Positions 6,001 through 10,166 of a stretch of 10,166 nt of DNA are shown piece after piece. Position numbers: made by a program. Positions within the stretch are counted from its first letter, which is position 1; the number at the start of each line of letters is the position of its first letter. Source of the stretch: a virus (lineage: Duplodnaviria > Heunggongvirae > Uroviricota > Caudoviricetes); the IMG/VR virus record IMGVR_UViG_2537561709_000006; one strand, written 5' to 3'.

Positions 6001-9000
6001 AAATGGAGTAAGCCGGGTCGCGGTGCCAACGAAGCTTTTGACCTGATGGTGTATGCCGAGGCTCTGGTCATTCTGCATGGATACGAAAAGATCCGCTGGC
6101 CGGATGCACCGGGGTGGGCGAGCCGGGAAACCTGGCTGGAGAGTGTCCCGGACAGTACCGAACCGTCACCCTCACCGGAACCGGTATCCACGCCTGTTAA
6201 AAAACAAAAACGGAAGAAAACAGTAACTGACGATGTTAACCCCTGGCTGACTTCCGGAGGATGGTTATGAACCAGAATGATATCGAAGCCATGATTCAGC
6301 GTTATACGGAAGCTGAAATGGCGGTGCTGGACGGAAAATCCGTCACCTTTAATGGTCAGCAGATGACCATGGAAAACTTATCTGAGATCCGGCAGGGACG
6401 GCAGGAGTGGGAGCGCCGCCTTGCGGCTCTGATTACACGACGACGGGGGCATCCCGGGTACCGGCTGGCGAGGTTCTGATGGCAATTCTTGATGATGTGA
6501 TTGGCGTTTTTTCACCAGGATGGAAAGCGGCAAGGCTGCGTTCCCGTGCGGTGATCCAGGCTTATGAGGCCGTAAAAACGACGCGGACACACAAAGCCCG
6601 GCGGGAAAACCGAACTGCCGACCAGTTAAGCCAGTACGGGGCCGTGTCGTTACGTGAGCAGGCCCGTTACCTTGATAACAACCACGATCTGGTTATTGGT
6701 GTATTTGACAAGCTGGAAGAACGGGTGGTGGGGAAAAACGGGATTATTGTCGAGCCACATCCGGTATTACGCAATGGGGCCATTGCCCGTGATCTGGCAG
6801 CGGAGATACGCACCCGATGGAGTGAATGGTCTGTCAGTCCGGAAGTCACCGGGCAGTTTACCCGTCCGATGCTGGAACGTCTGATGCTGCGTACCTGGCT
6901 GCGCGATGGTGAGGTGTTTGCCCAGATGGTTTCCGGGCGCATAAACAGCCTGACGCCTTCTGCCGGTGTTCATTTCTGGCTGGAGGCGCTCGAGCCAGAC
7001 TTTATTCCCATGACCAGTGATGAGAGCAACAGGCTGAATCAGGGCGTGTTTGTTGATGACTGGGGGCGTCCCGAAAAATATCTGGTGTATAAAAGCCGTC
7101 CCGTATCCGGACGGCAGATGGAAACCAAAGAAGTGGATGCAGAGCGAATGCTGCATCTTAAATTTGTTCGCCGTCTGCACCAGATGCGCGGGACGTCTTT
7201 GTTGTCCGGTGTGCTGATCCGCCTCAGTGCCCTGAAAGAGTATGAGGATTCTGAGCTGACTGCAGCAAGGATCGCCGCTGCTCTGGGGATGTACATCCGG
7301 AAAGGCGATGGGCAGAGCTATGAACCGGATGGTAATGGCAGCAAGGATAAGGAACGCGAGCTTACCATTCAGCCAGGCATTATTTACGACGATCTGAAAC
7401 CCGGCGAAGAAATCGGAATGGTGAAGTCGGATCGCCCCAATCCTAACCTTGAAACTTTTCGTAATGGTCAGTTGCGTGCCGTGGCGGCGGGCAGTCGTCT
7501 GAATTTTTTCCAGTACAGCGCGCAACTATAACGGCACTTACAGCGCCCAGCGTCAGGAGCTGGTTGAATCCACTGATGGCTACCTGATCCTGCAGGACTG
7601 GTTTATTGGTGCCGTCACCCGCCCGATGTATCGTGCCTGGCTGAAACAGGCTGTGGCATCCGGTGTTATCAGGCTACCCCGCGATCTTGACCGTTCTTCA
7701 CTGTATACCGCGGTGTATTCCGGACCGGTGATGCCGTGGATTGACCCTGTTAAGGAGGCTGAGGCCTGGAAAATTCAGATTCGTGGTGGAGCAGCGACAG
7801 AATCAGACTGGGTACGTGCAGGTGGTCGTAATCCGGATGATGTCAAACGTCGGCGCAAGGCCGAAATTGATGAAAACCGCAAGCTGGATCTGGTATTTGA
7901 TACCGATCCGGCCAGTGATAAAGGAGGCAGCAGTGCCGCAACGAAACGACAGGAGCCGCAGCACACCGACGACCAGTCCGAAGAATAATTCCTGGTTCAG
8001 GATGCAGGCTGGTCACCAGAGTGACGCGGATATTTATATTTATGACGAGATTGGTTTCTGGGGTGTTACAGCGAAGCAGTTTATCAGTGATCTGAATGCA
8101 CTGGGCGATATCACCCACATTAATCTCAATATCAATTCACCGGGTGGCGATGTCTTTGAAGGCATCGCCATTTTTAATGCACTGAAAACACATGGTGCGT
8201 CCATTACCGTTTATGTCGACGGTGTGGCGGCGTCAATGGCGTCGGTCATTGCGATGGTGGGAAAACCGGTCATTATGCCGGAAAACTCCTTCATGATGAT
8301 TCATAAACCATTTGGCTTTACGGGCGGTGATGCGGAGGACATGCGCACCTATGCCGACCTGCTCGATAAAGTTGAGGCGGTTCTGTTACCCGCTTATGCA
8401 CAGAAAACCGGGAAAACCACCGATGAAATTGCTGCCATGCTGGCGGATGAGACCTGGATGTCCGGTGCCGAATGTCTGGCACATGGATTTGCTGATCAGG
8501 TGACGCCAGCCGTTAAGGCAATGGCATGTATTCAGTCAAAACGTACAGAGGAATTTAAAAAGATGCCGGAATCCATTCGAAACATGATTACTCCGCCACG
8601 CAACAGTGCTCCACGCGTACAGGATGATGGACCTGCAGCCTCCCGGACGCCAGTGCAGGCAGCAGCACCTGTGGTGGATGAAAACAGTATCCGTGCGCAG
8701 GTACTGGCAGAGCAAAAAGCGCGTGTAAACGGTATTAATGATCTGTTTGCCATGTTTGGCGGGCGTTATCAGACGCTGCAGGCTCAGTGTCTTGCCGATC
8801 CTGAATGTTCGCTGGAGCAGGCCCGCGAAAAGCTGTTGAACGAGATGGGGCGCGAGTCCACGCCATCTAATAAAAATACCCCGGCTCATATTTATGCCGG
8901 AAACGGTAATTTTGTGGGGGATGGGATCCGCCAGGCGCTGATGGCGCGTGCCGGATTTGAAAAAACCGAACGTGATAATGTCTACAACGGGATGACCCTG

Positions 9001-10166
9001 CGTGAATATGCCCGTATGTCACTGACTGAACGGGGTATTGGGGTTTCCAGTTATAACCCGATGCAGATGGTCGGTGCGGCGTTCACACACAGTACGTCTG
9101 ACTTCGGTAATATTCTGCTGGATGTTGCGAACAAAGCCATTCTGCAGGGCTGGGAAGATGCCCCTGAAACCTATGAACAGTGGACGCGGAAAGGTCAGTT
9201 GTCTGATTTTAAAATTGCCCATCGTGTGGGTATGGGGGGCTTCAGTGCTCTGCGTCAGGTGCGTGAAGGGGCGGAATATAAATACGTCACCACCGGAGAT
9301 AAACAGGCCACTATTGCACTGGCGACCTATGGCGAGCTGTTCAGTATCACCCGTCAGGCCATTATCAATGATGATCTGAATATGCTGACCGATGTCCCGA
9401 TGAAACTGGGCCGTGCGGCGAAATCCACTATTGCCGATCTGGTTTATGCCATTCTGACGTCTAACCCGAAAATCTCCACAGATAATGTAAGTCTGTTCGA
9501 TAAAGCGAAACATGCAAACGTACTGGAGAGCGCTGCAATGGACGTGGCATCGCTGGATAAAGCCCGCCAGTTGATGCGCGTTCAGAAAGAGGGGGAGCGT
9601 CATCTGAATATTCGTCCTGCGTTCGTACTGGTACCGACGGCGATGGAGTCTGTTGCTAACCAGGTCATTCGCTCCTCAAGTGTCAAGGGGGCTGACATTA
9701 ACGCCGGTATTATTAACCCGGTGAAAGATTTTGCGATCGTTATTGCAGAGCCTCGTCTTGATGATAACAGCCAGACCACCTTCTACCTGGCTGCGTCAAA
9801 AGGCTCCGATACGATTGAAGTGGCTTATCTCAACGGTGTGGATACGCCATATATTGATCAGATGGAGGGCTTCAGTGTGGATGGCGTGACAACGAAAGTG
9901 CGTATTGACGCCGGTGTCGCGCCAGTTGATCACCGCGGTCTGGTGAAATGTACGGCGTAAACGTCGCAGACAACAACTCTGATGGCCCGTAAGGGCTTTT
10001 TTTGTACCTGAAATCAGCCCCTGAACGGGGCTGTGCGGAGACAGTTATGGCAAAGAATTTTGTAGAAGAAGGAAAAACGGTGGCGATTGTTGCCAGTGCA
10101 GCCATCGGCTCGTCATCACTTGCGTGACGTTCAGCCGGAGTGTCTTTACCGTCGTCCAGGATACCG

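Follow-up and report, generated by a model that had tools for sequence, protein, structure and literature searches.

The stretch of DNA analysed here (IMG/VR record IMGVR_UViG_2537561709_000006; 10,166 nucleotides (nt), referred to below as the window) represents the late part of a lambdoid prophage. In its head module, after a lambda-family portal gene and before a DUF2190-type gene, lies one uninterrupted open reading frame (ORF) that encodes a ClpP-like prohead protease, a candidate scaffolding region and a major capsid protein in a single polypeptide. This ORF runs from GTG 7933 to the TAA at 9958-9960 and specifies 675 amino acids (aa; 73.5 kDa), and exactly the same coding sequence (CDS) is annotated by PGAP as a protease/capsid fusion in EDL933 (WP_001136597.1). 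The fusion gene type is already known and is not new; the only part that might be new is a conserved internal initiation signature at codon Met211. The fusion ORF and the five regions recognized in its product are as follows.

7933-9960, plus strand: full-length fusion ORF (ClpP-like prohead protease, scaffold, major capsid protein)
7933-7992, plus strand: N-terminal extension, aa 1-20, rich in Arg, Ser, Thr and Pro
7993-8508, plus strand: ClpP-fold protease domain, aa 21-192, with catalytic candidates Ser101 (8233-8235) and His124 (8302-8304)
8605-8679, plus strand: Pro/Ala/Gln-rich linker, aa 225-249
8680-9027, plus strand: conserved helical domain, aa 250-365, candidate scaffolding (delta-like) domain
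9058-9957, plus strand: HK97-fold major capsid protein domain, aa ~376-675, with an E-loop at ~419-457 and a spine helix at 482-510

Both terminal domains are recognized by Pfam, CLP_protease at aa 31-191 (E-value 3.2e-36) and Phage_capsid_4 at aa 378-672 (E-value 2.1e-54). The protein was modelled with AlphaFold2 using an alignment of 145 diverse sequences, giving a mean predicted local distance difference test score (pLDDT) of 88.5; a first run with a shallow alignment of 25 sequences gave a mean of 45.8 and was discarded. Ser101 and His124 are invariant in all 145 aligned sequences, and the position of the catalytic Asp of ClpP is taken by Glu173 (8449-8451), which is conserved in 84% of the same alignment. 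The same uninterrupted ORF encodes both the protease, with its conserved Ser and His, and an HK97-fold capsid domain. A preliminary description, made from the sequence alone, had proposed a single polypeptide combining protease, linker or scaffold, and capsid protein, with a ClpP fold in its N-terminal third. Pfam, NCBIfam, the AlphaFold2 model and the invariant Ser101 and His124 confirm the fold, and the uninterrupted frame, together with the match to a published Gifsy-2 architecture described below, confirms the single polypeptide.

The central region between protease and capsid domains (aa ~193-375) consists of a disordered linker and helices, in keeping with the ~200-residue domain found at this place in the family. 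The Pro/Ala/Gln-rich linker is disordered (pLDDT <50 at aa 225-245) and hypervariable, which suggests a spacer under little sequence constraint. Both its length and its sequence vary even where homologs are otherwise >90% identical, the Shigella and Salmonella copies having 11-15 additional residues. The domain that follows is modelled with pLDDT values of 87-97 as helices at aa 250-273, 280-288, 294-307, 327-339 and 356-365, with a short disordered break at aa 316-322, and its residues Arg264 and Ile268 are conserved across 129 representatives. The linker had earlier been put forward as the possible scaffold; it is indeed present, but the conserved helical domain (aa 250-~365) is the likelier scaffold and the Pro/Ala/Gln-rich stretch a disordered spacer.

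We regard it as virtually certain that the gene belongs to the lambdoid-phage gene family typified by the "tripartite capsid gene" of Gifsy-2, a gene said to have been described by Effantin et al. in 2010 (Virology 402:355). The fusion protein scores 978.1 bits against NCBIfam NF045540 (cut-off 475), with aa 32-674 matched to positions 2-651 of the 652-position profile, and PHROG 133 matches it end to end. It is 70% identical over aa 18-674 to Gifsy-2 STM1034.3n (NC_010393), which is a member of the same NCBIfam family and likewise has a ClpP-like protease, a central domain of ~200 residues and a capsid protein in one ORF. The gene order is also the same: small and large terminase, a small protein and a lambda-type portal whose gene overlaps the start of the fusion come first, and a DUF2190-type gene and lambda-like tail genes follow. 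The two copies differ in the sequence and length of the N-terminal extension and the variable linker, and the window copy lies in a prophage with a broken portal gene. Papers that cite this work describe Gifsy-2 as having fused protease and coat genes (PMC12315714) and a T=7 capsid (PMC8814770), with a decoration protein that sits as a trimer on the threefold axes (PMC8538268).

At the DNA level the gene is 98.5-99.4% identical to copies in isolated phages (phi458, mEp460, cdtI, Ayreon, Tritos and others), and 80 phage records cover at least 80% of the fusion protein. Both domains occur together in thousands of enterobacterial and Pseudomonas proteins; the best 150 representatives (50% clustering) are mostly 640-740 aa long and align across aa ~16-672 at 35-60% identity, and 310 fusion loci were found in species-representative genomes. 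The fusion is thus widespread in Gammaproteobacteria. A second prohead protease/capsid fusion family, NCBIfam NF045541 (scaf_prot_MCP2), matches only aa 220-672 (397 bits, below its cut-off), and the N-terminal part of that model finds no match to the ClpP-like domain of the fusion protein. These matches suggest that different N-terminal regions have become attached to the scaffold-capsid module in the NF045540 and NF045541 families.

Two signals bear on where translation of the fusion begins.

7921-7927, plus strand: AAGGAGG, the Shine-Dalgarno (SD) sequence of the fusion gene, which lies within the portal CDS 5 nt before GTG 7933
8002-8004, plus strand: ATG of Met24, an alternative start that would give 652 aa and is used in the mEp460 and PhiR40_1 annotations

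Public annotation is divided between them, PGAP choosing GTG 7933 and the records of mEp460, PhiR40_1 and others ATG 8002, and no further start-type codon occurs from 7933 to the conserved IYIYDEIG motif. The preliminary description had left the choice between these two codons; its pair of candidates stands, as do its details of the GTG (the AAGGAGG sequence 5 nt upstream and an overlap of 56 nt with the portal gene), but the starts of aligned homologs now favour GTG 7933. Trp21, three codons 5' of ATG 8002, is conserved in 76 of the 76 homologous loci evaluated and forms part of the first beta-strand of the protease. In 28 of these loci a non-start codon (ATC, ATT, ATA, CTC, TTT, TTA or CTA) stands opposite ATG 8002 in the alignment, among them Gifsy-2, which has ATC, and Pseudomonas phage CF165a, and the protein there must therefore start upstream of the Trp. 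A start preceded by an SD sequence of at least 5 nt is found upstream of the Trp in 41 of the 76 loci (30 GTG and 11 ATG), and many enterobacterial loci have the same arrangement of AGGAGG and 5-nt spacing, 19-21 codons before the Trp; no SD sequence of this length precedes any of the 48 equivalents of ATG 8002. More distantly, 51 of 129 fused representatives open with M-x(1-10)-W-[YF]-x-[IM]; in 33 the Met24 position is occupied by Ile and not Met, and Ile is the commonest residue at that position among distant relatives. In the AlphaFold2 model aa 22-26 (WFRMQ; pLDDT ~89) form the first beta-strand, paired with aa 31-36; these residues belong to the protease fold, and a start at Met24 would cut the strand. 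We therefore judge Met24 to be a hydrophobic residue within this strand and not the initiator, and GTG 7933 to be, with good probability, the main translation start. The 20-residue extension that results is predicted to be disordered (pLDDT 44-48) and shows little sequence conservation in homologs. Its coding DNA shares the first 56 nt, in a different frame, with the portal 3' end, and the extension is best regarded as the price of a start that lies within the portal gene.

Within the frame, downstream of the protease domain, lies a second set of initiation signals.

8549-8565, plus strand: candidate internal translation-initiation region, with AGGA at 8549-8552, a 10-nt A/T-rich spacer and the ATG of Met211 at 8563-8565
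8563-9960, plus strand: putative nested in-frame ORF, aa 211-675 (465 aa, 50.6 kDa), comprising scaffold and capsid regions without the protease domain

The comparison with lambda made in the preliminary description was apt but incomplete, in that it missed this conserved internal ribosome-binding site, which would nest the gene in the manner of C and Nu3. The Met211 codon is ATG in all 77 of a set of unique, mutually related homologous ORFs (52-99% identity) from Enterobacterales, Pseudomonas, Pasteurellaceae, Shewanella, Ferrimonas and others. The AGGA spans codons 206 and 207, and is kept through amino acid changes among E, Q and K and between E and D: residue 206 is Glu, Gln or Lys, yet its codon is always GAG, CAG or AAG and never the synonym ending in A. 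Apart from one Trp column, codon 206 has the only invariant third base among 644 codon columns, and the only one where a synonymous choice exists; the median third-base entropy across these columns is 1.61 bits, and the fraction of G-ending codons is 0.01-0.83 in 21 other columns dominated by Glu, Gln or Lys. An SD-like 4-mer lies upstream of Met211 in 77 of 77 ORFs, versus 0-5 of 77 for the other conserved start-type codons (8 columns in total). The cost of opening the mRNA around Met211 has a median of 5.0 kcal/mol compared with 11.9 kcal/mol gene-wide, and the site falls within the least-structured decile of its own gene in 79% of the ORFs. In the window the corresponding values are -6.0 kcal/mol for the SD and 3.6 kcal/mol for opening, and by this crude energy measure the site and GTG 7933 are about equally favourable. 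Gifsy-2 (L006) likewise has the Met211 ATG with an SD-like AGGAG upstream. Pro212 is conserved at 95%, and two database proteins (P0285 and P0348) were started exactly at Met211 by gene callers.

At the sequence level, the 77 ORFs contain an in-frame internal start codon preceded by a candidate ribosome-binding site. The strict ATG is not explained by a structural requirement for Met, because distant fused homologs tolerate Ala, Val, Ile, Leu or Thr at this position, and the combination of an invariant ATG, an SD at fixed spacing and open structure argues for an initiation region rather than a pause site. Two other internal Met codons, Met197 and Met218, were considered as starts and rejected, as they are neither conserved nor preceded by an SD. 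A dnaX-like -1 frameshift signal (GAGGA-N4-AAAAAG; GAGGA followed by TTT AAA AAG, 8548-8562) was also rejected, since homologs keep AGGA and ATG but not the AAAAAG. The nested CDS is annotated in none of the phage and prophage records inspected, and no mention of a nested product or internal start, nor anything further of relevance on protease-capsid fusions, was found in the searchable literature text, which does not include the primary Gifsy-2 paper. Taken together, these sequence patterns make it slightly more probable than an even chance that the Met211 start is functional. It is a tentative proposal, somewhat short of even, that the clade of Gifsy-2, mEp460 and the O157 prophages (homologs to ~48% identity) carries two nested genes, with a 465-aa product without protease made alongside the full-length one and the two starts setting the amount of protease per procapsid; that the conserved internal start is both functional and unreported is likewise a little under an even chance.

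The portal gene upstream, whose 3' end holds the SD and start of the fusion gene, is not intact.

6407-7988, plus strand: lambda-family portal gene, split into ORFs 6407-7531 and 7626-7988

The split is caused by one extra T in the T-run at 7504-7509 (six T here and five in mEp460, where the portal gene is intact). It is found in all of the best-matching Escherichia coli O157:H7 genomes, and two portal CDSs are annotated by PGAP in EDL933 and other O157:H7 genomes. Defective portal or head functions are frequent among the lambdoid prophages of Sakai and O157 strains (PMC2669165), and the prophage, to judge from its sequence, is probably defective in head assembly. A homologous fusion gene in the Stx1 prophage VT1-Sakai (L089, AP000400.1) is broken by an IS629 insertion, and the interrupted copy is annotated as "scaffolding protein" plus "hypothetical protein". 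The protease frame is open from 7732, that is, for 67 codons upstream of GTG 7933 (7732-7932) within the portal gene. Because of this open frame, single-base indels in the portal 3' end are tolerated and give rise to the database "portal-protease-capsid" proteins of 1158 or 1159 aa (P0005-P0017). Programmed frameshifting was rejected as their source, the shift points being different (P0005 versus P0006), and the sequences suggest sporadic indels, either errors or mutations.

The window as a whole contains, in order, genes for a holin, the lysozyme RrrD, a lysis protein and a DUF1441 protein, the large terminase gene, a small protein gene, the portal gene, the fusion ORF and the start of the DUF2190 gene.

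4168-6270: lambda-type large terminase gene
9984-10004, plus strand: terminator-like hairpin GGCCCGTAAGGGC with a T-run, 3' of the fusion ORF

The hairpin is annotated as a rho-independent terminator in mEp460. Bases 1-10109 of the window are 100% identical to E. coli O157:H7 chromosomes, EDL933 included. The DUF2190 gene begins at 10047, and its remainder is replaced by a piece of fusA: the final 61 nt of the window (10106-10166) match an inner part of this core gene (EF-G) at 100% identity. The junction at 10106 is present in no complete E. coli genome, so that the window end is, from its sequence, taken to be a chimeric join or misassembly, which leaves the fusion gene unaffected.

We consider the following explanation as a whole highly probable. 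Translation from GTG 7933 would give a 675-aa chain in which an N-terminal tail is followed by the protease, the variable spacer, the helical scaffolding region and finally the HK97-fold capsid protein. If Gifsy-2 is taken as the analogue, the capsid domains would form a T=7 procapsid around the portal and enclose the scaffold and protease domains. The Ser101/His124 protease would then cleave flexible regions, removing everything N-terminal to the capsid domain, and the fragments would leave; the shell would expand and subsequently be stabilised by binding of the downstream DUF2190-type product. For this clade we further propose that the internal ribosome-binding site (AGGA, 10 nt, ATG 8563) would also yield the 465-aa scaffold-capsid protein, so that the protease would be incorporated sub-stoichiometrically. 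The sequence data show the domain architecture, the family membership, the conserved catalytic residues, the comparative evidence on the start codon and the nucleotide conservation around the internal site, while self-cleavage, the cleavage positions, use of the internal start and the ratio of the products are inferred. In the model the disordered segments at aa 225-245 and 316-322 are candidate cleavage sites, and cleavage near aa ~375 is also possible, from the spacing of E-loop and spine helix in HK97 and the Pfam boundary; the predicted mass of the mature protein is 38.4 kDa if it begins at aa 323 and 32.6 kDa if it begins at aa 376.

Four other explanations were weighed against this one. 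The chance that the fusion is an artefact, created from separate protease and scaffold-capsid genes by a sequencing error or by recent mutation of the strain, is negligible. Separate ClpP-type protease genes are common in other phages, and P0285 (443 aa) and P0348 (468 aa) are stand-alone calls that begin at the Met211 equivalent, but P0285 is a frameshifted copy of the fusion (locus L086), and P0348 (locus L087) is a fragment cut off by the end of its contig, its frame still open in the upstream direction; both were rejected as naturally split scaffold-capsid genes. The same uninterrupted ORF recurs in E. coli genomes, viable phages, Salmonella, Pseudomonas, Pasteurellaceae and Shewanella; homologs are consistently fused, the split into two genes that the preliminary description named as a refutation is not seen, and on these comparative sequence data the artefact is already refuted. 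A start at ATG 8002 (652 aa), with the upstream GTG and SD a by-product of portal coding (Asp-Lys-Gly-Gly-Ser-Ser), is unlikely. It would use the commoner start codon, 14 nt after the portal stop where reinitiation is allowed, it is annotated in several phage records, matches to the protease models of Pfam and NCBIfam do not begin before aa 31-32, and the Trp strand is missing in some distant relatives. However, ATG 8002 has no SD, the SD:anti-SD duplex being worth only -2.6 kcal/mol there, compared with -11.6 kcal/mol at GTG 7933, and its opening cost is 13.6 kcal/mol, the codon being partly buried in a hairpin at 7990-8002. Its position is occupied by non-start codons in more than a third of the loci (28 of 76) that all keep Trp21, Met24 lies inside a confidently modelled beta-strand, and in four loci (L034, L037, L040 and L047) the SD-preceded upstream start is itself an ATG. 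The hairpin (TCCTGG-TTC-AGGA) spans the portal stop to ATG 8002, taking in the first base of that ATG, and also encodes the conserved Ser-Trp-Phe-Arg.

Somewhat less than an even chance is given to the explanation in which only the full-length tripartite polyprotein is made and each capsid subunit carries its own protease and scaffold, the AGGA and ATG of codons 206-211 reflecting a protein-level need for Met211, an SD-like pause that aids domain folding, or an RNA element. This agrees with the description of the fused gene in PMC12315714; the full-length start has the stronger SD, Pro212 is conserved for protein-level reasons, and distant fused homologs without Met211 indicate that the polyprotein alone can suffice. 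It accounts poorly for an ATG in every ORF of the clade at a position tolerant in distant relatives, for an SD-like motif kept through residue changes by the sole invariant synonymous site of the gene, and for a site that so often lies in the least structured tenth of its own mRNA. A further possibility, evenly balanced in our estimate, is that the gene is a remnant without a current role in this genome, either decaying or only complementing other O157 prophages. The portal split shared by all best-matching O157:H7 genomes and the many Sakai lambdoid prophages with defective portal or head functions (PMC2669165) favour it, whereas the fusion ORF is intact and its product 99.1% identical to that of phage mEp460; it bears in any case on activity in this host and not on the identity of the gene. 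Returning to the explanation we prefer, a start at GTG 7933 with an additional internal start at Met211, several points weigh against it. The 77 ORFs fall into 32 clusters at 80% identity and 10 at 70%, so that counts among them overstate independence. In fused homologs below ~48% identity Met211 is replaced by Ala, Val, Ile, Leu or Thr, and since these lack the site the family evidently can work without an internal start. In some distant members of the family the protein begins at the IxIYG strand itself and has no Trp strand, termination-reinitiation at ATG 8002 could occur to some extent, and the fusion gene, intact here, may not be building the heads of this prophage.

The fusion gene shares with lambda the lambda-family portal and terminase and a protease gene placed directly after the portal. 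In lambda the protease gene C contains an in-frame internal start from which the scaffold Nu3 is translated, and the putative nested start at Met211 would follow the same logic; the lambda shell is stabilised by the trimeric decoration protein gpD. Lambda C is an S49 (SppA-type) protease, whereas the fusion protease is ClpP-like (CLP_protease E-value 3e-36) and scores only 22.2 bits with the SppA_dom model, whose cut-off is 155. The capsid protein E is a separate gene product in lambda, whereas here the capsid domain is the C-terminal part of the same ORF and belongs to another family (Phage_capsid_4). With HK97 the likeness lies in the fold of the capsid domain. HK97 gp5 has its scaffolding function fused N-terminal to the capsid protein, from which it is removed by the prohead protease, and the proposed 465-aa product would be organised alike. 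The HK97 protease gp4 is encoded by a separate gene and is of another family (S78), in contrast to the protease fused in the same ORF here. By analogy, chainmail cross-linking is not expected in the Gifsy-2-type family, because Gifsy-2 uses a decoration protein (PMC8538268). The protease also differs from cellular ClpP (MEROPS S14), having Glu in place of the catalytic Asp, a fused scaffold and capsid protein and no implied AAA+ partner; it scores 61.6 bits with the ClpP equivalog TIGR00493 against a cut-off of 308.6, and all ClpP equivalog and subfamily models fall below their cut-offs.

In herpesvirus UL26/UL26.5 and Mu I/Z, a long protease-scaffold protein and an abundant shorter in-frame scaffold share a C-terminus, and this sets the amount of protease per procapsid. 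The arrangement proposed for the Met211 nested product is the same, but the proteases are unrelated, and the shared C-terminus, which in those systems only binds the capsid protein, would here be the capsid protein itself.

Resolving the start at GTG 7933 has practical value for annotation, since public records disagree. If the internal start is used, the assembly model for a widespread head type, that of lambdoid prophages of E. coli O157, Shigella, Salmonella, Pseudomonas and Pasteurellaceae, would shift from a protease in every subunit to a nested design with controlled protease dosage, and this design would converge on those of lambda C/Nu3, Mu I/Z and herpesvirus UL26/UL26.5.

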